Source: Bacilli bacterium (lineage in GTDB: Bacteria > Bacillota_I > Bacilli_A > RFN20 > CAG-826). Taken from it: a DNA stretch of 24,000 nt. Shown here in pieces: positions 1,961 to 23,108 of the stretch (its first letter is position 1; every line of letters begins with the position of its first letter). The stretch is taken from contig JBAZED010000006.1 in NCBI GenBank assembly GCA_041654095.1, forward strand, positions 40,935-64,934, in the 5' to 3' direction. The position numbers and the translations under genes were made by a program. The notes beneath the pieces were generated by a model that did no database searches, was not told where the DNA came from, and worked only from the letters and a program-made list of their open reading frames with translations.

Positions 1961-2305
1961 CACCGACCTCGATAACTACTGGTTAGTCCAGAGGAAAGTC
2001 CATGCTCGCACTGGCTGTGATGCCAGTAGTGATTGCGCTAGCGGAAAAGATAACGCTAGGTATGCGGGAGCGCATAACGGCGGGAAAAAGCCTAAAGCTT
2101 CGGCCACGGTCGTATCCCTGAAAGTGCCACAGTGACGCAGCTCGGCAGAAATGCTGAGGTGGAACGCGGTAAACCCCACAAGCGAGAAACCCAAATTTGG
2201 TAGGGGAAGTGTACCTAGAGAAGCGAATCGCGGTACGCATGCACATTGTGCATAGATAAATTGTTATCCTTGACAGAACATGGCTTACAGGGTCGGTACT
2301 CACTT
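1961..2305 (+). ncRNA. rnpB: RNase P RNA, bacterial type B (Firmicute type), compact at about 345 nt
   Basis: Near-identical to universally conserved and B. subtilis rnpB blocks: GAGGAAAGTCCATGCTCGCAC (1991-2011), TGAAAGTGCCACAGTGACG (2119-2137), GGAACGCGGTAAACCCC (2161-2177), AGCGAGAAACCCAAATTTGGTAGGGGAA (2181-2208) and ACAGAACATGGCTTACAG (2273-2290). The P1 stem pairs ACCGACCT (1962-1969) with GGGTCGGT (2290-2297). Ends are good to about +/-5 nt. Confidence 0.93.
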
Positions 2306-10959: not shown

Positions 10960-12576
10960 ATGTCACTTTTGCCTATTGATCAAATTGCCAAACAAGTCGG
11001 CATTCCTGTCGATTATCTTGAATTATATGGAAAGTATAAAGCAAAGATTGACACAAGGATTTTTGAAATGCTCAAAGACATTCCCGACGGAAAGTTAGTT
11101 TTGGTGACGGCGATCACACCCACAAAAGCGGGCGAAGGCAAGACGACGACTTCCATCGCCCTCGCCGAAGGGATGGCGAAGATAAATCAAAAAGCCATGC
11201 TCTCACTTCGCGAACCATCATTGGGTCCGGTCTTCGGCATCAAAGGCGGAGCGACGGGCGGGGGGCTGGCATCAATCGATCCTCGCGACGATATCAATTT
11301 GCATTTTACCGGGGATATGCACGCCTTGACATCGAGCATTAATTTAATCGCGGCGATGATTGACAACCACATTTTCCAAGGCAACGAATTGCAGATAAAT
11401 CCCGATCGCATCGTGTGGAAGCGCGCGATGGACATGAACGATCGCGCTCTGCGCGAAATTATCGTCGGCCGCGGTCCGAAAAATGGGACTGAAAGAAAAG
11501 AGAATTTCGTGATTACAGTCGCCTCAGAACTGATGGCCATCTTATGCCTCGCCAGCGACGCGGAAGATTTTCGAAATAGGGTTCAGCAGATTATTATTGC
11601 CTACAATTATCAAGACGAACCGATTCGCGTCAAGGATTTAAGAATTTCTCACGCCATCATGAAGTTGATGCGCGATGCTCTGAAACCCAATCTCGTGCAG
11701 ACGATTGAAAATAATCCCGTCCTAATTCACGGCGGGCCATTTGCGAATATCGCCCACGGATGCAATTCGCTCATCGCCTTGAAATTATCGCAAAAATTAG
11801 CGCCCATCTCGATTACGGAAGCAGGCTTTGGGGCTGATCTCGGCGCGGAGAAATTCTTTGATATTGCATGTCGATTTGGAAATATGAAACCCGATGGCGT
11901 CGTCGTCGTCGCAACCTTGCGGGCTTTGAAAATGCACGGCGGCCAACTATTAGAAAAAATCAGCGAGGAAAATGTCAATGCCTTGCTTAAAGGCGTTTGC
12001 AACCTTCGCATTCACCTTGAAAATATCAAAAAATTCGGCGTGCCTTGCATCGTGGCCATCAACCATTTCGCCAGCGACCATCAAAGCGAGATTGAAGCCC
12101 TCGAAAAATGGTGCAAAGACAACAGTTACGCCGTCAGTTTTCTCGATGGCTATCTCAAGGGCGGCGAAGGAGCTGTCGACTTAGCGCAGAAAGTCATCAA
12201 GATGCTGGAGACTGAGCCTTCTTATTACCAGCCTTTGTATAAGTTGGATTTGAGCATCGAAGAAAAAATCGTAAAAATCTGCAAGCAAATATACCGAGCC
12301 GGGAAAGTTGATTTTGCGGACAAGGCTAGAGAGCAGATGGCGAAGTATGAGAAAATGGGTTATGGACAATTTCCGGTCTGCATGGCAAAAACGCCCCTCT
12401 CGATGAGCGATAATCCCGAGGTCATCGGCGCTCCAGAAGGCTTTACCATCACGATTCGCGAATTAAACCTTTCGGCGGGAGCGGGTTTCATCGTCGCCTT
12501 AACCGGTGATATCATGACGATGCCGGGACTGCCAAAAATACCGTCAGCCGTCCTCATGGAAGATTTTCCTTATTGA
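10960..12576 (+). CDS. fhs: Formate--tetrahydrofolate ligase
   Basis: 538 aa with the nucleotide-binding segment TPTKAGEGKTTTSIAL, then EPSLGPVFGIKGGA.GGG and HGGPFANIAHG. SD CAGGAG is at 10945-10950. Confidence 0.97.
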   Translation: MSLLPIDQIAKQVGIPVDYLELYGKYKAKIDTRIFEMLKDIPDGKLVLVTAITPTKAGEGKTTTSIALAEGMAKINQKAMLSLREPSLGPVFGIKGGATGGGLASIDPRDDINLHFTGDMHALTSSINLIAAMIDNHIFQGNELQINPDRIVWKRAMDMNDRALREIIVGRGPKNGTERKENFVITVASELMAILCLASDAEDFRNRVQQIIIAYNYQDEPIRVKDLRISHAIMKLMRDALKPNLVQTIENNPVLIHGGPFANIAHGCNSLIALKLSQKLAPISITEAGFGADLGAEKFFDIACRFGNMKPDGVVVVATLRALKMHGGQLLEKISEENVNALLKGVCNLRIHLENIKKFGVPCIVAINHFASDHQSEIEALEKWCKDNSYAVSFLDGYLKGGEGAVDLAQKVIKMLETEPSYYQPLYKLDLSIEEKIVKICKQIYRAGKVDFADKAREQMAKYEKMGYGQFPVCMAKTPLSMSDNPEVIGAPEGFTITIRELNLSAGAGFIVALTGDIMTMPGLPKIPSAVLMEDFPY

Positions 12577-12578
12577 GT

Positions 12579-12800
12579 ATGCAAGTTATTAATTACCAAC
12601 TATTTGACATCGTCGAAATGAAAAAGGAGCACCCGTGTCTTCACCGCACAAAAAAATTTCAGATTGTGCGCGTGGGTGCCGATATTAAAATCATGTGCTT
12701 GGGCTGCGGAAACGTCATCATGCTGACCCGCTATGACTTCAATAAGCGCATTCGCAAAGTTCTTAGCCACGAAGAAGCGCCAATAAAAAACGATAAATAG
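12579..12800 (+). CDS. DUF951-family small protein (YyzM-like)
   Basis: About 73 aa. The sequence DIVEMKKEHPC....KFQIVRVGADIKIMCLGCGNVIMLTR.DF.KRIRKVL matches the remembered DUF951 consensus (cysteine pairs PC...C.GCG). The start is set at ATG 12579; the track's TTG at 12573 is two codons upstream. Confidence 0.8.
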   Translation: MQVINYQLFDIVEMKKEHPCLHRTKKFQIVRVGADIKIMCLGCGNVIMLTRYDFNKRIRKVLSHEEAPIKNDK

Positions 12801-12834
12801 TTTTTAAGTTTACACCCTTATATATTGGTGTCAG

Positions 12835-13527
12835 ATGCAAACACCAGTTTTAAAGATTATCCAACTCAGCAAAACATTTTCGCTAGGCAAAAATGATTTT
12901 TTGGCACTTAAAGATATCTCGATCGCCTTTCCTAAAACCGGTTTCGTTCTCATATCAGGCAAGTCGGGATCAGGCAAATCGACGCTTCTCAATCTAATCG
13001 CCGGAATTCATAAGCCTTCTGAGGGTCACGTCTTTTATCGCGACAAAGCTATTGACGCGATGAGTGAAAGACACCTCTGTGCTTATCGAAATCGCGAACT
13101 GGGTTTCGTTTTTCAGCAGTATAACTTATTCGATAAGCAAAGCGTTTTGTTCAACGTGATTTTACCGCTGCTAATTGATGGAAAAGGAATCGCTAAAGCC
13201 TATGAGACTGGCGAGCAGCTCCTTAAACTATATGGCATGGAGGAGATGGCGAAAAGGGATGTCGCCAAATTGTCGGGAGGAGAGAAGCAGCGCGTCGCCA
13301 TCATCCGAGCCATTATCAATAATCCGGCGATTGTCCTCGCTGATGAACCGACGGGTGCCCTCGATCGTCAAAATGCCGAAAGGACCATGCTTTTTCTTAA
13401 AGAAATATCTAGCGAACGCCTAGTCATTGTCGTCTCTCATGACCTCGAATTAGTCAGGAGCTATTCAACTCGTCATATCGAGATAAAAGATGGGAAAGTC
13501 GCCCATGATAGCGGGCCTATTTGCTAA
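12835..13527 (+). CDS. ABC transporter ATP-binding protein (MacB/LolD/FtsE-like NBD)
   Basis: 230 aa with all motifs intact: Walker A GKSGSGKST, Q-loop FQQYNL, signature LSGGEKQRVAIIRA, Walker B/D-loop IVLADEPTGALD and H-loop VSHD. Confidence 0.93.
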   Translation: MQTPVLKIIQLSKTFSLGKNDFLALKDISIAFPKTGFVLISGKSGSGKSTLLNLIAGIHKPSEGHVFYRDKAIDAMSERHLCAYRNRELGFVFQQYNLFDKQSVLFNVILPLLIDGKGIAKAYETGEQLLKLYGMEEMAKRDVAKLSGGEKQRVAIIRAIINNPAIVLADEPTGALDRQNAERTMLFLKEISSERLVIVVSHDLELVRSYSTRHIEIKDGKVAHDSGPIC

Positions 13528-13536
13528 ATCGAAATT

Positions 13537-14916
13537 ATGAATTGGAAACAGCGTTTTGCGTGGCACTATCTAAAAGAAAACACTCTTAAAAATACAATTT
13601 TGTGGCTCTCGTCTTTGATCAGCTTTTCTTCTTTGCTCCTCTCGCTTGGATTCTTCGTCGGCTCGAATCAGCTCATTGATAACACGCAAGATAACTTACT
13701 TGATAGCCAACTCTTTATGGTCACAAAGCAGGAGAAAATATCCTCGAGCGAATCTCCTGTCGCGTTGGTGAAGACGTTGCGACCAAATCTCGAAGAGCTA
13801 AATTTTCTATCGACCTTGGCTCCTTCGGCGATAATCGCTAATGACTATCAAAAAATTTTCCCTGGTGACTGCGAATTGAAGCTTGATAGTCATAGTATTG
13901 AAAATGTCGTTTTTACACCTCTTCATAGTTTTCAACAACTCCATAGCAAAAAGCATCTATTAGTTAACGGTGCAATTCCAAAAAGTGAAAACCTTGCAAA
14001 AATCGTCATTAATTCCACTTTTGCTGAGATATTAACCACAAACGTCGACTCGTTGATCGGTAAGAAAATCGAAGCGAGCATCACGAGCAAGATAATAGTT
14101 GCCGATAGCATCGGTTCACCGATTGAAGACTATTTTCTTTTACAAGAGCAACTTGAGATCTGCGCGGTATTTGATGAATTATCTTTTTTGAATAGTCCGA
14201 AAATCTTTTATTCATTTGTCGCTTTGGAAAAGAGGCTTGACGAATATGCTTTATACAATATTAGCAAATCGCTCCATCGCTTTATCTCGTGTCGCGAGAT
14301 TTATCAAATAATTGGGAATGATCACTATTTAACGAATTACTCCCGAACGCTTTTTGTTCTCGATAATAACGATTTTCGAAACCTTTCGTCTTTAGCGGTT
14401 AAATCGGCAATCGAGGATTCGCCGCTATCTATAGAATCGAACGCTCTGGTTATAAAAGACACTTATCGAGATTTGACCAAAGCCGCTTTATACTCGATGT
14501 TGATTTTTGTGATAATTGCTTTTGCGGGACTATGCGCGATAATGGCGATCAGCGCCTATTCCAACTATGTTTCCAAAAAGAGAGAATCGGCACTGCTCAG
14601 CTGCTTGGGAGCAGATAAAAGCGCGATTCTCAATATCTTCCTAAGGCAAAATCTATCAATCACCATCTCAGCCGCTATTGCATCGCTATTCTTTTCGAAA
14701 TTGATACAAGGTATCGCAAACTTATATTTCTATGAGCATTTTATGTTTGACGGCCTCATCGATATCCCCTTTTTCTCTTACCGGGATATTCCTATGGCGA
14801 TTATTATTGTGCTGATAATCTTCGCTTTTATCACCACCTCGATATTCACGCTTATTCCCCTTTCCTTCTATAAAGGATTTTCACTAGCTGATGAGCTCAG
14901 GGATGGGACGAGTTGA
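13537..14916 (+). CDS. ABC transporter permease, FtsX/MacB-type (4 TM, ~270-aa extracytoplasmic domain)
   Basis: 459 aa. TM1 spans about residues 20-43, a hydrophilic domain spans about 44-315, and three C-terminal TM helices follow. The FtsX-domain signature after TM2 is KKRESALLSCLGADKSAIL. Confidence 0.85.
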   Translation: MNWKQRFAWHYLKENTLKNTILWLSSLISFSSLLLSLGFFVGSNQLIDNTQDNLLDSQLFMVTKQEKISSSESPVALVKTLRPNLEELNFLSTLAPSAIIANDYQKIFPGDCELKLDSHSIENVVFTPLHSFQQLHSKKHLLVNGAIPKSENLAKIVINSTFAEILTTNVDSLIGKKIEASITSKIIVADSIGSPIEDYFLLQEQLEICAVFDELSFLNSPKIFYSFVALEKRLDEYALYNISKSLHRFISCREIYQIIGNDHYLTNYSRTLFVLDNNDFRNLSSLAVKSAIEDSPLSIESNALVIKDTYRDLTKAALYSMLIFVIIAFAGLCAIMAISAYSNYVSKKRESALLSCLGADKSAILNIFLRQNLSITISAAIASLFFSKLIQGIANLYFYEHFMFDGLIDIPFFSYRDIPMAIIIVLIIFAFITTSIFTLIPLSFYKGFSLADELRDGTS

Positions 14917-17711
14917 AGTTAAATTCGATTACTAAACAATACGGAAATAGGAAAGCGCTCGATGACTTTACCTGTCACTTTCCAAAGTGCGGTTTGATCG
15001 CGGTCGTCGGGCCTTCCGGGTGTGGGAAGACAACGCTGCTAAACATCATGGCGGGACTCGATCAAAATTACGATGGGGAAGTCATGTTTCGACAGATATC
15101 GTTAAAGGAATTAAGCGGGGACGACTTAAGTTTTTACCGCCTATATAACATCGGTTATGTCTTTCAAGATTTTCGCCTCTTTGATGTCGATACCGTCGCG
15201 GATAATCTTCTGATTCCACTCGACATGGTCAGCCGAGACGAGCCAGCGAGCAAACAGCGGTACATCGACTTCATACTGGACTTGGTTTCGATGAGGACCA
15301 AGAGAGACGTTAAAATTAATCTTCTGTCCGGCGGCGAAAAGCAAAGAGTTGCGATAGCGCGCGCTCTTATGAATAATCCGAGCGTTTTACTCTGCGATGA
15401 GCCGACGGGAGCGCTGGATGAAAATAACGCGGCCGCGGTTATGGAAATCCTCAAGGGCATTTCGAAGCAGAAACTGGTTGTTGTCGTCACTCACGATGAG
15501 GCGCTCATCAAGAAATACTGCACGGAAATAATAAGGCTTAAAGATGGTCGCATCATCGAAGCAAAAAAGTTTCAGCACAACAATGATTCTTCAAGAAGAG
15601 TAATCAGCAAAATAATGATTGATGAAGGACATCGGCGGATGCCGTTAAAGACGATGTTTCGGCGCGCATTTTCGATTATTAAGACAAAGAAGCATCGATT
15701 AATTCTGAATAACGCGATGATGTCGTTAGGTTTACTCGGCGTCGGGCTTAGCATCATCATGTCCTTTTCCATCTCCGACCGCATCGTCGCAGGTTTTTCG
15801 AAAGTAATAAGCGACGATATGATTGTCATGTCGAATAAAAAAGAAGCCTCGGCAATCATGAGCGCTTATAGCGCGGGCTACGATAATGTCGTAAAAATAC
15901 GCGAAGCTTATGAGGACTACATTAAAGACATAGGTGTCTCTTACGCGGTCAATTTTGAATCGTTTTTTCAAGACCGCGATGAACTGTTCATCTCCTCGAC
16001 GGCGCACAAGATTGTATTACCTCGTTTTACGACTCGGCAGATCAATGATTTTTATTGGCTCGACGATGAAGTGAAAAGCCGCGTCGTCTACCCCCAGCGA
16101 ATGACCAGTCTTGCTGATGACGAAATAGTCATCGGCCTTCCTTACAACGATATGGTCGGGTTGTGTTATGCCCTGAGAATTGAACGAGATTACGAATCGC
16201 TTGGCGACTATCTTCAAAATACGAAAACTCTCGTTACTTTAGGTATCGCTAATCAAGAGTGGCAGTATGAAGATGAGCAACTTTTTTCTCTATCTGGCAT
16301 CATCGAAACGGAAGCGTCAGCTCTTTTTCATACCAATCATCTTTGGAGCGAATACGTTTTTGAAGATAAAATGCGCCTTCCGAGCATCGATGGTGGGCCC
16401 TACGAATTACCTTGGCAAATGGCCAAAACATATTTTCTGAGAACGCGATTGAATCCAGAACTCTTTCTTGAAAAGGTGATGTTTGACAAAAACTTAACCG
16501 ACTATGTCTTTGAAATGGCGGGATTTGTTCATCACCCGACGCATTGTCCGATAAGCGGTCCGTGTTTACTTGATCGCCTACTCGTGTATCACGCCGATAA
16601 GGAGACCATCGATTTAAGCAGACTTGCCTCGATATTAAAAAGCGAGCGCAAGCTTCAGAATTATATCTATGCTTCAGATAGTGGCTATTACTATCATCCC
16701 CATTCATTTCTGGCTGGCTTTGCCAAGAATGTCTTAATCTCGTTGAGCAAGGCGCAAATCGAAACGGCGATTGACGCCGATAGCTTGTTGCAGAACAATT
16801 CCGAAAACGCCTTTCTCGATCCGCCTCCCGGAGTCGTCCAAGGAAGCATTCACACAAGCTTGACTGGCGGCTTGGGTTTTTCGAGCGACTTGGACGATCT
16901 TATCTACGGAATTAAACCGCAGAACCTCAATCAAATAGCTGTTACAGAAGGCTTGGCAAATCACTTGTCAACACCCCTGGAAATAATGGGCAAAACACTG
17001 CATATCGCCGTGAATTACAGCGACATTCGCTACGACAATGAGCGGATTGAAAAACAATATGCATTAATCGAAGTGGAAATCGTGGGAATTGTTCGCGGCA
17101 GTCAAATCGCCATGCACCACAACCCGTATTGGAGCGTCGGTTTTTTTCAAATAAAAGCTGGAGTAAGCGCCTTTGAACTCATCCCTAAACACGTCATTTT
17201 CAAGATCCGAAACACCGATTCTCGCGGCGCCTTTATCGAGCACCTGACGAGCGAGTACGACGATTTCGCGTTTTATAACCCAATGGCATCGATCAGCGCT
17301 GGGCTCGACGAGACGATGAGTTTTGTAAAAACGGTGCTAGTCTCCCTTTCATTTCTCTCCGTCACTTCATCGCTCTTTCTCTTCTTCCTCGTCATGTTCG
17401 TGACGATCGAAGAAAATCGCAAAGACATCATTTTAATGGACTATTTGGGTATTCCAAAAAGCGAAATTCGAAAGTCATTTATCGTTTGCGGGTTGATGAT
17501 CACATCGTTAGCTTTTTTATTGGCCAGCGCGGAAACGGTGGCGGTCGATTTCCTTATAACACATGTTATCGGCGGTTACATCGGCACAAACATACCTTAC
17601 ATTTTTGATCCAAAACCTTTGCTTGCCATTCTTTCTATTGCGATTATTATCGCCTATCTAGCAACGAGAGCGGCTTTTGAAAAGCAATATAAATTTGTTA
17701 AAAAAAGATAG
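14913..17711 (+). CDS. Fused ABC ATPase / FtsX-MacB-type permease with a ~520-aa extracytoplasmic domain
   Basis: 932 aa with a TTG start overlapping the upstream TGA (TTGA). The N-terminal NBD is intact (GPSGCGKTT, VFQDFRL, LSGGEKQRVAIARA, LLCDEPTGALD, VTHD). TM1 spans about residues 264-285, a large hydrophilic domain spans about 286-806, and three C-terminal TMs follow with the FtsX signature ENRKDIILMDYLGIPKSEI. Confidence 0.88.
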   Translation: MKLNSITKQYGNRKALDDFTCHFPKCGLIAVVGPSGCGKTTLLNIMAGLDQNYDGEVMFRQISLKELSGDDLSFYRLYNIGYVFQDFRLFDVDTVADNLLIPLDMVSRDEPASKQRYIDFILDLVSMRTKRDVKINLLSGGEKQRVAIARALMNNPSVLLCDEPTGALDENNAAAVMEILKGISKQKLVVVVTHDEALIKKYCTEIIRLKDGRIIEAKKFQHNNDSSRRVISKIMIDEGHRRMPLKTMFRRAFSIIKTKKHRLILNNAMMSLGLLGVGLSIIMSFSISDRIVAGFSKVISDDMIVMSNKKEASAIMSAYSAGYDNVVKIREAYEDYIKDIGVSYAVNFESFFQDRDELFISSTAHKIVLPRFTTRQINDFYWLDDEVKSRVVYPQRMTSLADDEIVIGLPYNDMVGLCYALRIERDYESLGDYLQNTKTLVTLGIANQEWQYEDEQLFSLSGIIETEASALFHTNHLWSEYVFEDKMRLPSIDGGPYELPWQMAKTYFLRTRLNPELFLEKVMFDKNLTDYVFEMAGFVHHPTHCPISGPCLLDRLLVYHADKETIDLSRLASILKSERKLQNYIYASDSGYYYHPHSFLAGFAKNVLISLSKAQIETAIDADSLLQNNSENAFLDPPPGVVQGSIHTSLTGGLGFSSDLDDLIYGIKPQNLNQIAVTEGLANHLSTPLEIMGKTLHIAVNYSDIRYDNERIEKQYALIEVEIVGIVRGSQIAMHHNPYWSVGFFQIKAGVSAFELIPKHVIFKIRNTDSRGAFIEHLTSEYDDFAFYNPMASISAGLDETMSFVKTVLVSLSFLSVTSSLFLFFLVMFVTIEENRKDIILMDYLGIPKSEIRKSFIVCGLMITSLAFLLASAETVAVDFLITHVIGGYIGTNIPYIFDPKPLLAILSIAIIIAYLATRAAFEKQYKFVKKR

Positions 17712-18014: not shown

Positions 18015-18043
18015 AAGCCCTAATTTATTAGGGCTTTTTCTTT
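18015..18043 (+). terminator. Rho-independent terminator downstream of the csp gene
   Basis: A perfect 9-bp stem (AAGCCCTAA at 18015-18023 paired with TTAGGGCTT at 18028-18036) with loop TTTA, followed by TTTCTTT. Confidence 0.8.
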
Positions 18044-19231: not shown

Positions 19232-19708
19232 ATGGATCGGATCGGATATGGAGAAGACATTCATCAGCTCGTCAAGGGGCGAAAACTCGTCCTCGGCGGA
19301 ATTGAAATACCCTTTGACAAAGGGTTGCTCGGGCATAGCGACGCCGATGTTGTTTGCCACGCTTTGGCCGATGCCTTATTGGGCGCTTTGGCGCTCGGCG
19401 ATATCGGACAGCACTTCCCAGATAATGATCCCCAGTACAAAAACGCCGATAGCACTTTGCTCCTCGCCGATGTCTACCAGTTAATTCTCGCCAACGGCTA
19501 TGAGATCAACAATATCGATTTGTCGATATCTTTGGAGCGACCCCATATCGCCACCTATCTATTAGCGATGCGCAAAAAACTTTGTTCTCTTCTCTCAATC
19601 GCTCTCGACGTAATGTCGATCAAGGCGATGACAAACGAAGGACTTGATGCGGTCGGTCGCGGCGAAGCCTGCCGCGCCACAGCCATCGTCTTATTAAGAG
19701 AAAAATAA
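19232..19708 (+). CDS. ispF: 2-C-methyl-D-erythritol 2,4-cyclodiphosphate synthase
   Basis: 158 aa with RIGYGEDIH (Asp/His zinc ligands), GLLGHSDADV..HA..DALLGA...GDIG..FP and a matching remainder. Strong SD AAGGAG is at 19221-19226. Confidence 0.93.
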   Translation: MDRIGYGEDIHQLVKGRKLVLGGIEIPFDKGLLGHSDADVVCHALADALLGALALGDIGQHFPDNDPQYKNADSTLLLADVYQLILANGYEINNIDLSISLERPHIATYLLAMRKKLCSLLSIALDVMSIKAMTNEGLDAVGRGEACRATAIVLLREK

Positions 19709-19709
19709 A

Positions 19710-21038
19710 ATGACAGCCCGCATTTGCTTTAGCACAAGAGAAGGAGCTCATCTCGGTCTTAATGAAACGAGACTCGCCTTCATTTCGTATTTGCTGGCCA
19801 AAAAATTACGAGGCACTTTCATCTATCGACTCGGCGATGCCCATCAAAAAGAACTGGAAGAAAGTCGGAAAAGACTCTCGTCACTCGAAGATTTGCAGTG
19901 GCTGAACCTCAGCCCCGATGAATCGCCCCTTAATCCGCGGCCAAAATATGCGCCTTATGCGCAATGCGAGAGAATCGATATTTATCGCCGTTATATCGAA
20001 TCGCTTTTAGCGATGGGTGCGGCTTACGAACGAGCCAGTCCGAAAGAAAAGGGTTCTTCTCTCAACGGCGCGCGGCCCGCTATCTACTTGAAAATGACCG
20101 GCATCGAAGAGGGGGCGGTCAGCGATCTGCGACAGGGGCGAATCAGCAGCAACAAGCTCAATTTTAACGATTGGCTCATCGTTGATAGCAGCGGACAACC
20201 GAGCTACGATTTTGCCGCGATGATCGATGATCACCTGATGGATATCAGTCATCTTATCTTCGATGCAAATCAAGTTCCTAACTGGAATCGCTATGTGATT
20301 TTATACCGCTATTTCCACTGGCATCTTCCGCTTTTTTTATCTCTGCCACCTCTAAAAATAGAGCGCGAGGACACATCGTCGCACTTCGTTGAAGAACTGC
20401 ATGACAAAGGATATCTCTCCGAAGCCGTCTGCAACTATTTGTTTGCTCTCGATATCGAGGAAATATCATCTGATCATCCCAATAAAATCGAGGCGATGAT
20501 CGCTGATTTCGACGTGAAGAAAATTCACAATAATCATCGTCTGTTTGACATAAAAACCTTGCGCAGAATCAACTCTTTATTAATAAAGAAGACGACCGAC
20601 ACCGAATATGCGGCGTTTGTCCGACCCTTTATTCAGCGTTTTGTCAGCGAGAAGTACAACGATGATTATCTGCTCAGATTAGCCGTGCTCTTCAAACAGC
20701 AAATTACGCACGGTTTGGAACTGTGGGATTTCTTCACGCCCTTTTTAGAAGACGCCCCCAATCTTTCACCGAGCGAACTGCAGCTCTTGAATCTGAGCGC
20801 GTCCAAAACCGTTGTTGGCGAATTAGCCGATGCGATTGGCGAGTTCGATGGCGAAATCACCGATGTTGATTTGTTGCTCGACAATCTCCAACATCGCCTG
20901 CAAATTACCGGCAGAGATTTCTACTTGCCGGTTCGCCTCCTTTTGACGAGGATGAGCCATGGCGCGGAGTTGGGGGAGATCATCAGATTTCTCGGCAAAG
21001 ATGAAGTGCTCCTTCGCCTCCGCCAAGATAAAGATTGA
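19710..21038 (+). CDS. Glutamyl-tRNA synthetase-like protein with degenerate catalytic motifs (not called gltX)
   Basis: 442 aa, collinear by eye with GluRS (..APY.Q.ER...Y, PSYDFAAMIDDHLM, GYLSEAV.NYL, and the C-terminal LPVRLLLTRMSHGAELGEIIRFLGK). The HIGH-region, EDTD, RGEDH and KMSKS signatures are all substituted; see findings. The ORF is intact with a 1-nt gap after ispF. Confidence 0.8.
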   Translation: MTARICFSTREGAHLGLNETRLAFISYLLAKKLRGTFIYRLGDAHQKELEESRKRLSSLEDLQWLNLSPDESPLNPRPKYAPYAQCERIDIYRRYIESLLAMGAAYERASPKEKGSSLNGARPAIYLKMTGIEEGAVSDLRQGRISSNKLNFNDWLIVDSSGQPSYDFAAMIDDHLMDISHLIFDANQVPNWNRYVILYRYFHWHLPLFLSLPPLKIEREDTSSHFVEELHDKGYLSEAVCNYLFALDIEEISSDHPNKIEAMIADFDVKKIHNNHRLFDIKTLRRINSLLIKKTTDTEYAAFVRPFIQRFVSEKYNDDYLLRLAVLFKQQITHGLELWDFFTPFLEDAPNLSPSELQLLNLSASKTVVGELADAIGEFDGEITDVDLLLDNLQHRLQITGRDFYLPVRLLLTRMSHGAELGEIIRFLGKDEVLLRLRQDKD

Positions 21039-21062
21039 ATTATACTATTGTATAAGTATAAT
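21035..21062 (+). promoter_or_regulatory. Candidate sigma-A promoter for argS (TTGAAT-N16-TATAAT)
   Basis: TTGAAT at 21035-21040 overlaps the TGA of the upstream gene. A 16-nt spacer and a perfect TATAAT at 21057-21062 follow. ATG is at 21080. Confidence 0.45.
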
Positions 21063-21079: not shown

Positions 21080-22702
21080 ATGGATATCGAAACCTTCCTC
21101 AAAAATAAAATCGTCGGTGCTCTGCAAAAAGTTGGTCTCGATGTTTTAGCGAGCGATGTCATCCTCGAACACCCCAAAGAAGAAACGCGCGGTGACTATG
21201 CGACAAGTGTCGCTTTGCAACATGCCAAAAAAATCGGTTTTAAGCCTCGTGACTTAGCCGAGCAAATCGTCGCGGTAATCGATCGTGACGGCATCAGCAA
21301 AATCGAAGTGGCAGGGCCTGGTTTTTTAAATATTTTTCTAAAATCGGAAGCGCTGCAATCGATCGTCGGAGATGTCATTGCGAAAAACGAGAACTATGGG
21401 CGCGGATCAAAAAAAGCGACCAAGGTCAACGTCGAGTTCGTCAGCGCCAACCCGACTGGCGATTTGCATCTTGGGCATGCGCGCTGCGCCGCGATCGGCG
21501 ACGCCATCTGCCGCCTATATGAGTTTGCCGGCTATGAAATCACTCGCGAATTCTACATCAACGACGCCGGCGCCCAAGTGAATAAGATGGGCGCGTCACT
21601 ACAAGCTCGCTACCTGAATGAGTGCGGGCTCAATGCCGAGGTACCGGCCGATGGTTACCACGGATTAGATCTCGTCGATCTCGCCAAGCAAGTCAAGGAT
21701 TTGTACGGTGACAAATTGATTGCTGATACCAAAGAAAACTTCCTCACTTTCATCAGCGAAGGAATTAGGTTGGAACTCGAAAAAATCAAGCGCGATCTAG
21801 CTCTGTTTCGCGTCCACTTCGATCTTTATAGTTACGAATCAGAAGTTCGAAAAGATGGTAAAGTCGAAAAGACTTTGGAAGAATATAAACCCTTCACCTA
21901 TCTCGATCAAGGTGCGACGTATTTGAAGACGACGGCCTTTCTCGACGATAAAGATCGCCCGGTCGTTAAGAGCGATGGCTCATATACATATTTGATGCCA
22001 GACATCACTTATCACCTGCAAAAATTGGGCCGCGGTTACGATTTGCTCGTCGACGTATTAGGCGCCGACCACCACGGGTACACGAATCGGATGCGCAGCG
22101 CGCTGATGATGAAGGGATATCCGGCGGAAATAATTGATTTTGAACTTGTTCAAGTCGTCCGCTTGATGAAGGGCGATGTCGAAGTCAAAATGTCGAAGCG
22201 CGGGGGAACGACCGTCACCCTTCGCGAGCTCGTTGAAGAAGTCGGAGTCGATGCCACGCGCTATTTCTTTGCGGCCCGCGCCGCGACGAGCCACCTCGAT
22301 TTCGATTATGATTTAGCCCTTGAACAAAGTTCGTCTAACCCGGTTTTCTATGCGCAATACGCTCACGCTCGCTTGTGCAAATTGCTCGAGACGGGGGCGG
22401 ATTTCGGAATTGACATCTCAGCTCGCAATCTTCGCGAGACGGCTGAGATTAACTTGCTCAAGCACCTTCAGGAGTTTCCAAATACGATCGAAGGCTGCGC
22501 CAAAACTCGCGAACCATATAAGGTTGCAGCGTACATTCAGAAGTTGGCGGCGCTTACGCACGCTTTTTACACTGAATGTCGTGTAATAGATCGCGATAAT
22601 GCCGAATTATCGCAATCGCGCCTCGCCTTGTGCAAGGCCAGTCAAATCGTCATGCGGAATGCGCTTAACGTCTTGGGAGTAAATGCTCCCGAACAAATGT
22701 AA
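21080..22702 (+). CDS. argS: Arginine--tRNA ligase
   Basis: 540 aa with the class I signature ANPTGDLHLGHAR (HIGH) and KMSKRGG (KMSKS equivalent). The C-terminal DALR anticodon-binding region reads YAHAR... Confidence 0.96.
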   Translation: MDIETFLKNKIVGALQKVGLDVLASDVILEHPKEETRGDYATSVALQHAKKIGFKPRDLAEQIVAVIDRDGISKIEVAGPGFLNIFLKSEALQSIVGDVIAKNENYGRGSKKATKVNVEFVSANPTGDLHLGHARCAAIGDAICRLYEFAGYEITREFYINDAGAQVNKMGASLQARYLNECGLNAEVPADGYHGLDLVDLAKQVKDLYGDKLIADTKENFLTFISEGIRLELEKIKRDLALFRVHFDLYSYESEVRKDGKVEKTLEEYKPFTYLDQGATYLKTTAFLDDKDRPVVKSDGSYTYLMPDITYHLQKLGRGYDLLVDVLGADHHGYTNRMRSALMMKGYPAEIIDFELVQVVRLMKGDVEVKMSKRGGTTVTLRELVEEVGVDATRYFFAARAATSHLDFDYDLALEQSSSNPVFYAQYAHARLCKLLETGADFGIDISARNLRETAEINLLKHLQEFPNTIEGCAKTREPYKVAAYIQKLAALTHAFYTECRVIDRDNAELSQSRLALCKASQIVMRNALNVLGVNAPEQM

Positions 22703-22715
22703 GAAGGAGAATTAC

Positions 22716-23108
22716 ATGTCAGAAAAATCGATGCTCGACCTCGCCTTTGAGGTTATCAATCAAACGAAAGAGTTGCCTATCAGCTTTCATGAACTTTGGG
22801 AGACGGTCTGTCAAAAAGCCGGCCTGAATAAAGAAGACACCCGCCGCCTCATCAGCCGTTTTTACACGAATTTGTCGATGGATGGGCGCTTTGTAGCTCT
22901 CCCCGATAATTTCTGGGACTTGCGCTCCAATCACACGTTTGACAAAGTGCACATCGACATGAACGATGTCTATACCGAAGTGGAGACGATCGAAGAGATC
23001 GATGAAGAGGAAATTGAATACCTCAAGATCGAAGACGAAGAAAAAGAAGACGCCGATGAAGAAGGCGATAGTGAAGAAACAAAAGAGGAAATCGAAGATT
23101 TGTATTAA
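22716..23108 (+). CDS. rpoE: DNA-directed RNA polymerase delta subunit
   Basis: 130 aa from ATG 22716, preceded by SD AAGGAG at 22703-22708. The N-terminal domain (ML.LA.EV......P..F.ELW..V....G......I..FYT.LS.DGRF) is followed by the strongly acidic Asp/Glu tail typical of delta. The track start at 22683 is rejected. Confidence 0.85.
   Translation: MSEKSMLDLAFEVINQTKELPISFHELWETVCQKAGLNKEDTRRLISRFYTNLSMDGRFVALPDNFWDLRSNHTFDKVHIDMNDVYTEVETIEEIDEEEIEYLKIEDEEKEDADEEGDSEETKEEIEDLY

Follow-up and report, generated by a model that had tools for sequence, protein, structure and literature searches.

Our analysis concerns one gene in a stretch of 24,000 nucleotides from a Bacilli bacterium (GTDB lineage Bacteria; Bacillota_I; Bacilli_A; RFN20; CAG-826). 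The stretch spans positions 40,935 to 64,934 of the forward strand of contig JBAZED010000006.1 (assembly GCA_041654095.1) and is called the window throughout. The gene, here named X, is an open reading frame (ORF) at positions 19710..21038 (+) of the window that codes for 442 amino acids followed by a stop codon. Its product has the five-domain fold of a full-length glutamyl-tRNA synthetase (GluRS, encoded by gltX) without the catalytic motifs, which is why we refer to it as a pseudo-GluRS. The start codon of X lies 1 nt past the stop of ispF (YgbB; 19232..19708, +), and the reading frame is intact. The same adjacency to ispF is found in outgroup genomes that carry a canonical gltX. On the other side of X lies argS (21080..22702, +), a canonical gene with both HLGH and MSKR kept, which we use as a yardstick for evolutionary rates.

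That X belongs to the GluRS superfamily is clear from its sequence as well as from its fold. It matches the Pfam models tRNA-synt_1c (PF00749; 3.7e-31, 108.6 bits) and Anticodon_2 (PF19269; 1.9e-11, 45 bits) above their cut-offs, and its closest solved relatives are full-length bacterial GluRSs, for example that of T. maritima (2O5R, 8e-40). An AlphaFold2 model, built from an alignment of 72 sequences, reaches a mean pLDDT of 92.1 and a pTM of 0.90, with a single weak stretch at a loop where residues have been deleted. When this model is compared with solved structures using Foldseek, the best matches are full-length bacterial GluRSs (2O5R, 8JPV and 1J09) at TM 0.82-0.86; GluQRS and the archaeal and eukaryotic GluRSs fit far worse. 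The original prediction, made by reading the letters of the window, had proposed an intact full-length GluRS homologue directly after ispF with a 1-nt gap and a preserved fold. Coordinates, Pfam matches and structural model all agree with this proposal.

On the equivalog model for bacterial GltX (NCBIfam TIGR00464 gltX_bact) X scores 203.7 bits, which is under the cut-off of 289.95. Nor is it a GluQRS: on TIGR03838, with its cut-off of 276.7, X reaches 51.8 bits and X-type proteins 52-90 bits, and X has an anticodon-binding domain (ABD). None of the defining features of a functional GluRS that could be tested is present in X.

In public annotations the protein appears as 'nondiscriminating glutamyl-tRNA synthetase' (IMG) and as 'glutamate--tRNA ligase family protein' (NCBI PGAP). 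We are almost certain that the IMG label misstates the function of the protein.

Active site and anticodon-binding end

To compare X with working enzymes site by site, 214 canonical GluRSs were aligned with ten members of the X family, which represent three lineages and include four GTDB species. Positions are numbered on T. thermophilus (Tth) GluRS, for which the reference sequence used is 100% identical to 1J09. Canonical conservation at the catalytic positions R5, H15, G17, E41, D42, D44, Y187, R205 and K243-R247 is 92-100%, except at K243 (183/214, 86%). X carries substitutions at all of these positions except D42 and Y187, and these two residues are missing from most other family members.

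What is left of PSPTG-x-LHIGG (residues 8-19, STREGAHLGLNE; 19731..19766, +) has GLNE in place of HIGG. R5, found in 214/214 canonical sequences, is C6 in X and C, R or I within the family. H15 (208/214) and G17 (209/214) have become G16 and N18 in X, and the family is variable here, with G, S, T, N, E or D at the two positions. RIEDTD has changed to RLGDAH (19827..19844, +), which replaces E41, the ligand of the glutamate alpha-amino group (201/214), by G42 in X and by G or D in the family; D44 (209/214) is substituted by variable residues. The segment DDHLM-ISHLIFDANQ (residues 173-188; 20226..20273, +) keeps the structural DDH and has lost the GEEH and W209 positions as well as R205 (210/214), which is F184 in X. 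Family members have F, S, I, C or A at this last site, and R solely in P0010. At Y187 (199/214), the family has G, A, E, D, V, S, T or F, and the tyrosine persists solely in the X of the window (Y166). Together with N191, a further glutamate ligand that is A170 in X, this means that four of the five residues of the glutamate-binding set R5/E41/Y187/N191/R205 are lost in X, and the tyrosine alone is kept.

The second class I signature has fared no better. The residues of K-L-S-K-R (Tth 243-247) are present in 183-207 of the 214 canonical sequences, and in the family they are substituted and variable. By alignment, the former KMSKS loop of X comprises residues 213-228, including KIERE (20346..20393, +); within the family this loop is 7-8 residues shorter, acidic and 20% identical among members. 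In addition, a clean deletion of 31 alignment columns in X takes out the CxC...Y...C zinc-knuckle of the acceptor-binding subdomain. The junction lies between G120 and A121 (nt 20069/20070), and the loop that the alignment places there (20040..20072, +) has the lowest pLDDT of the model (~60). D173, D174 and H175 (the DDH) and R21/R40 are invariant in the X family. The old catalytic residues also differ between the ten aligned family members.

The original prediction gave most of these changes. The substitutions it named are all found at the coordinates it gave, namely HLGL (19749-19760), RLGDAH (19827-19844), SHLIFDANQ (20247-20273) and KIERE (20355-20369), and APYAQCER and LDI (for LGW) are present too. 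The shortening by about 30 residues that it had noticed is the 31-column deletion between G120 and A121, and the contrast it drew with the neighbouring ArgS, where HLGH and MSKR are retained, holds. Around HIGH it was wrong on one point. The 2-residue insertion suggested there does not exist, as HMMER (against 3AKZ and 2O5R) and MAFFT both align residues 4-45 without a gap. The HxGx remnant can indeed be read as HLGL, but in the alignment H14 falls two columns ahead of the H with which HIGH begins. The broader claim, a lost adenylation and glutamate-binding pocket, is supported: the catalytic positions are substituted and vary within the family, and the KMSKS loop is 20% identical. Judged from its sequence, X would be unable to activate glutamate.

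The other end of the protein presents a different picture. Anticodon-binding domains 4-5 (residues 297-442; 20598..21035, +) are under constraint near that of canonical GluRS. They contain the segment FYLPVRLLLTRMSHGAEL (20919..20972, +), which includes R409, G418 and L421, each of them invariant or conservatively substituted in the family. R409 corresponds to the conserved R435 of Tth GluRS, which stacks on U35 and bonds C34 of the tRNA (PMC12088422). This arginine is invariant across the ten family members, and G401, Y405, G418 and L421 are retained as well. Position 358, which reads C36, is Gln in all members. Gln is also the commonest residue at this position in the canonical GluRSs of our alignment, and we take it to be typical of non-discriminating GluRS.

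Descent, distribution and selection

The family is small. A word-indexed search recovered six orthologues with 46-50% identity to X and the same losses, and when 1.84 billion cluster representatives were searched exhaustively with the family profile, just three family lineages came out: the P0002 group, to which the X of the window belongs, P0009, and P0010/P0011. In the same profile search canonical GluRSs scored 256.6 bits or less. On TIGR00464 family members reach 195-270 bits, compared to about 581 bits for canonical positional orthologues (cut-off 289.95). Every full-length family sequence recovered from the three lineages is an intact ORF of 439-448 aa, free of frameshifts and stops. The check for orthologues with the same substitutions, proposed in the original prediction, has thus yielded three lineages with shared losses. 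A literature search brought up no account of a catalytically dead GluRS of full length.

P0009 (448 aa) lies on a contig of 719,387 bp (L086, ERZ27250602 k141_1508116) and is a more canonical-looking member: it retains RVRYA and APYRQSER, and HIGH and KMSKS are gone. One of the source samples is an anaerobic digester, and the clade has been sampled from anaerobic digesters and other metagenomes.

Scanning GTDB genomes with X as a single-protein query gave no match, while a scan with the family alignment detected an X-type gene in four GTDB species. This second scan used two family-derived patterns, and we considered the best 80 of its 244 matches. In every family member the gene order around X is miaA-thiF-fhs-ABC-csp-ychF-ispF-X-argS-rpoE-fba. 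The best 80 matches also included 76 loci from other Bacilli/Erysipelotrichales-like genomes, where a textbook gltX lies 3' of ispF (475-486 aa, with VRVRYAPSPTG-LHIGGAR and KLSKR). Many of these outgroup loci have the flanking order csp-ychF-ispF-gltX-argS-rpoE-fba, as the X loci do, and in 74 related genomes among the best 80 of 244 a canonical gltX sits between ispF and argS/rpoE.

Hence, X occupies the ancestral gltX slot, as had been predicted. It is, however, not a repurposed paralogue in that slot, which the original prediction had considered, but the gltX orthologue itself. On the family profile the outgroup positional orthologues score 285-343 bits, above any canonical library representative (at most 256.6 bits). 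Because these local genes outscore every representative in the library, we conclude that X is a positional orthologue of gltX that descended in place from the local Bacilli gltX. An origin from a foreign 'short' type of GluRS, which resembles X in being without the CP insertion, is ruled out by the far higher scores of the local positional orthologues. The P0002 group, P0009 and P0010/11 share the boundaries of the 31-aa deletion as well as the motif losses, and since the deletion boundaries are the same in all three lineages, the sequences point to a single inactivation event in their common ancestor.

How strongly selection acts on X is difficult to measure across the main seven lineages. 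Synonymous sites are saturated there (pS 0.7-0.88), and dN/dS values are unusable. We therefore took dN/dS from two closer pairs of loci, L090/L007, which is unsaturated, and L091/L006. For L090 and L007, dN/dS of X is 0.106 (dN 0.076, dS 0.72), with 0.112 for the catalytic half and 0.091 for the ABD. The corresponding values for the surrounding genes are 0.052 (argS), 0.045 (fhs), 0.039 (fba), 0.029 (ychF) and 0.123 (ispF). For L091 and L006, dN/dS of X is 0.18, based on 16 non-synonymous and 23 synonymous differences. X is kept under purifying selection that is looser than before. The dN/dS comparison suggested in the original prediction hence gives 0.11-0.18 for X and argues against decay.

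Looser selection is visible in protein identity too. Canonical gltX products are 82% identical where ArgS is 75% identical, and X is 42-49% identical where ArgS is 77-82% identical. Comparing amino-acid differences of X with those of canonical gltX at matched divergence (the canonical side being one clade, with 13 pairs from 6 genomes) shows where in the protein the change has occurred. The ratio is 4.5x for Rossmann-N, 4.4x for CP, 6.3x for Rossmann-C, 10x for the KMSKS loop and 6.1x for the stem-contact fold, versus 1.0x for ABD-a and 2.3x for ABD-b. Constraint has been freed mainly on the catalytic body of X and is largely retained on its anticodon-binding end. The preserved anticodon-binding end of the original prediction is therefore borne out twice, by the invariant R409 and by ABD rates of 1.0-2.3x, compared to 4.4-10x in the catalytic half.

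Two irregularities concern the sequences used for these pairs. The loci L091 (1814-4285) and L006 (317-2788) come from two assemblies of one species and are 98% identical. Of their 49 mismatches, 45 are clustered in the last two-thirds (3') of the pseudo-gltX and immediately past it (L091 3337-4280), while ispF and the opening 476 nt of the pseudo-gltX have none. Such clustering points to a mosaic of strains, to recombination or to a chimeric consensus. In L007 (GTDB metagenome-assembled genome OH_PDB_11), codon 181 of argS (11372-12991) is an in-frame TAA in place of the GAA of its close relative L090, with the remainder of the gene intact; the probable cause is an error of assembly or consensus, or a polymorphism between strains.

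Possible roles of X

We are confident that X is a dead but selected GluRS orthologue, and the following history would account for it. In the common ancestor of a small uncultured clade of Bacilli, gltX would have lost amino-acid activation, with HIGH, KMSKS, the glutamate ligands and the zinc-knuckle of the acceptor subdomain all destroyed. Purifying selection would then have preserved the gene, whose product still folds into five domains; on the ABDs this selection would be about as strong as in a functioning GluRS, while the residues of the former active site drift freely. X may act without catalysis: from the conservation of its residues it is predicted to bind the anticodon arm of tRNA-Glu and/or tRNA-Gln. 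Its role could be that of a tRNA-binding factor, for sequestration, escort or hand-off, or that of a regulator.

Non-catalytic tRNA binding is the most likely role because constraint on the ABDs is near canonical while the active-site residues drift. Taken by itself, the proposition that tRNA binding is the function that has been retained is, from the sequences, about an even bet. The combined reading, in which X is a non-catalytic, selected descendant of gltX that likely binds tRNA and GluRS activity comes from another gene, is one that we moderately favour.

Several observations weigh against this combined reading. The catalytic half of X is still constrained (dN/dS 0.11), so more than the ABD matters; the residual constraint could reflect fold stability, a partner surface or an unrecognised site. 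ABD-b has become less positive, with a median net charge of -1 in the family versus +2 in canonical GluRS, and the zinc-knuckle on the acceptor side has been deleted; either change could weaken the affinity for tRNA. The matched-divergence comparison draws its canonical side from a single clade. Finally, no second gltX of the Erysipelotrichales type was seen for the four GTDB family genomes among the best 80 of 244 loci, in a scan whose patterns a foreign-type GluRS would not match.

This last point deserves attention, as the cell must obtain Glu-tRNA-Glu from somewhere. To our knowledge no organism lacks GluRS, which is universal and essential, and for this reason we assume that a replacement exists. 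Aminoacylation of tRNA-Glu would then be carried out by another gene elsewhere in the genome, probably a xenologue. A vertically inherited paralogue of the Erysipelotrichales type is weakly disfavoured by the best 80 of 244 loci, to which the four family genomes contributed the dead copy alone, because that type conserves the scanned WLGIIPDESP and should rank with the nearest outgroups. The only canonical GluRS that shares words with X, P0008, was considered as the second gltX and rejected; it is unrelated and has a peptidoglycan/CPR-like context.

One could also argue that X serves as a non-catalytic protein partner, that is, a scaffold or regulator of the real GluRS, of GatCAB or of ArgS. 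The purifying selection on the catalytic half (dN/dS 0.112) despite a variable pocket fits a requirement for surface or fold, X is conserved next to argS, and there are pseudo-synthetase precedents in HisZ with HisG and SLIMP with mitochondrial SerRS (PMC9437257). Yet adjacency to argS and ispF is ancestral, occurring also with canonical gltX, and is uninformative. Furthermore, the anticodon-contact elements are the best-kept parts of X, and bacterial GluRS of its type is monomeric (PMC12088422). We regard a role as partner as unlikely.

A second alternative is that X has been repurposed as an enzyme whose remodelled pocket performs new chemistry, using pre-charged Glu-tRNA as substrate or binding a new small molecule. 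The loss of the ATP motifs together with retention of a Rossmann fold and a tRNA-binding domain parallels the cyclodipeptide synthases, and D173, D174, H175 and R21/R40 are invariant in the family. However, these residues are equally invariant in canonical GluRS, and there is no new conserved polar cluster: the pocket varies (R5 is C/R/I, E41 is G/D, and R205 is F/S/I/C/A/R). A biosynthetic gene context is missing as well. All this makes new chemistry improbable.

Still less probable is a split synthetase, in which X would act in trans, lending an anticodon-binding module to a GluRS-type catalytic protein that is encoded by another gene and has no ABD. A kept ABD with a free pocket would be expected under such a division of labour, and ABD-less relatives of GluRS do exist (GluQRS). 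None of the genomes shows such a partner gene in the roughly 20 kb surrounding the locus, though, and keeping a full catalytic body of 300 aa would be needless; the idea is purely speculative.

It has been reported that AspRS can accurately synthesize Glu-tRNA-Glu in vitro (PMC6523644). Conceivably, then, the clade is without a conventional GluRS and obtains Glu-tRNA-Glu from AspRS or from a split or unrelated ligase, with X as a cofactor that recognises or presents tRNA-Glu. We would be very surprised if this were the case.

That X is still the cell's (only) GluRS, with a highly unusual active site, is harder still to believe. Its place in the gltX slot, its IMG label as a non-discriminating GluRS and the lack of a second Erysipelotrichales-type gltX for the four GTDB genomes among the best 80 of 244 loci are what one would expect of a sole GluRS. 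But the scan patterns were derived from the family and are blind to a foreign-type GluRS. Moreover, both class I signatures and four of the five glutamate ligands are lost at positions that are not conserved in the family, the KMSKS loop has become shorter and acidic, X stays under the TIGR00464 cut-off, and the catalytic half has been substituted 4-10x faster. Least credible of all is a slowly decaying pseudogene: accelerated evolution and the loss of all catalytic motifs would fit, but the ORFs are intact in three lineages despite saturated synonymous sites, dN/dS is 0.11-0.18 and the fold is predicted with confidence.

The reading of X as a selected, non-catalytic gltX descendant also separates it from the known relatives of GluRS. 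Canonical GltX (TIGR00464; 1J09, 2O5R/3AFH) shares with X the five-domain fold, the slot after ispF, the anticodon-contact arginine and the C-terminal motif P(L/I)R...TG..HG(P/A)(D/E)L..LGK. X differs from it in being without HIGH, KMSKS, PSPTG, the glutamate ligands (R5/E41/N191/R205) and the zinc-knuckle. GluQRS (YadB), the glutamyl transferase that acts on the queuosine of tRNA-Asp, is like X derived from GluRS and does not charge tRNA-Glu. It is the mirror image of X: it has kept the catalytic domain and glutamate activation and has no ABD, whereas X has kept the ABD and lost the catalytic residues. A 2022 review of aminoacyl-tRNA synthetase (aaRS) paralogues names YadB alone under the paralogues of GluRS (PMC9437257).

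GluRS2, which is specific for tRNA-Gln (Helicobacter, Acidithiobacillus, Thermotoga), resembles X in that its genome needs another GluRS for tRNA-Glu, as the genomes with X would. Unlike X, it is fully active and has the canonical motifs. In a 2014 survey GluRS2 is limited to proteobacteria, hyperthermophiles and acidobacteria and is not found in Firmicutes (PMC3927822). Between them, the 2022 review (PMC9437257) and the 2014 survey (PMC3927822) name only GluQRS and GluRS2 as GluRS-derived proteins with an altered role.

Functionally, X is closest to aaRS-derived pseudoenzymes such as SLIMP, a SerRS-like protein of insect mitochondria, or HisZ, a regulatory subunit that resembles HisRS (PMC9437257). 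X has an aaRS fold with lost catalytic residues and is under purifying selection across species. SLIMP and HisZ are likewise derived from aaRSs, have kept the fold without aminoacylation and are selected, and SLIMP also binds tRNA. They differ from X in being class II, dimeric and extra paralogues with known partners, while X is class I, bacterial and the orthologue itself. The cyclodipeptide synthases, finally, are class I aaRS-like Rossmann proteins which, like X, are without HIGH and KMSKS. These enzymes use aminoacyl-tRNAs and do so without ATP motifs. In contrast to X they are derived from TyrRS/TrpRS, are small, have no ABD and possess a conserved new pocket with a catalytic Ser.

If our interpretation is correct, then X would be a bacterial, class I, full-length pseudo-synthetase that has kept its anticodon-binding module. 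Annotation pipelines that score X as "GluRS present" are wrong for this clade, and their label would mask a missing or replaced GluRS when pathways are reconstructed. On our interpretation, a replacement GluRS would have been acquired and is now a search target. X also amounts to a natural experiment that can tell which parts of GluRS work in tRNA recognition apart from catalysis and is, as its sequence suggests, a candidate for a new regulatory or hand-off factor that binds tRNA-Glu/Gln.

Other features of the window

The genes ychF, ispF and X are contiguous. A consensus scan finds a terminator-like hairpin 3' of csp (18015..18036, +), and the ychF-ispF-X transcription unit probably starts past this hairpin. 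The same kind of scan, and nothing else, gives a promoter-like TTGAAT-16-TATAAT at 21035..21062 (+), in the 41-nt spacer between X and argS, which is not above shuffle expectation. Rfam shows no T-box or other regulatory RNA near X, there are no tRNA genes within the window, and PADLOC returns no match for X.

In the window and in all related loci ispF is without an adjacent ispD, and it is among the faster-evolving genes of the block. In B. subtilis, by contrast, the arrangement is ispD-ispF-gltX. Three co-oriented ABC/FtsX genes (12835-17711, +) lie 5' of csp in the window, in all family loci and in some outgroups; one of them is a fusion of an ABC ATPase and an FtsX-type permease of 932 aa with a TTG start.

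The listed ORF of rpoE (delta subunit, HARE-HTH; 22683-23108, +) shares 20 nt with the end of argS. As no gene with exactly the listed product is on record, rpoE probably begins at an internal ATG at about 22716. A class B bacterial RNase P RNA (1964-2292, +; 281.6 bits) fits a low-GC Gram-positive (Bacillota) host. It is overlapped by an ORF at 1983-2303 (-) and by the listed TTG start of pgsA at 2246. Because of this overlap, the ORF is probably spurious and pgsA probably starts further downstream.

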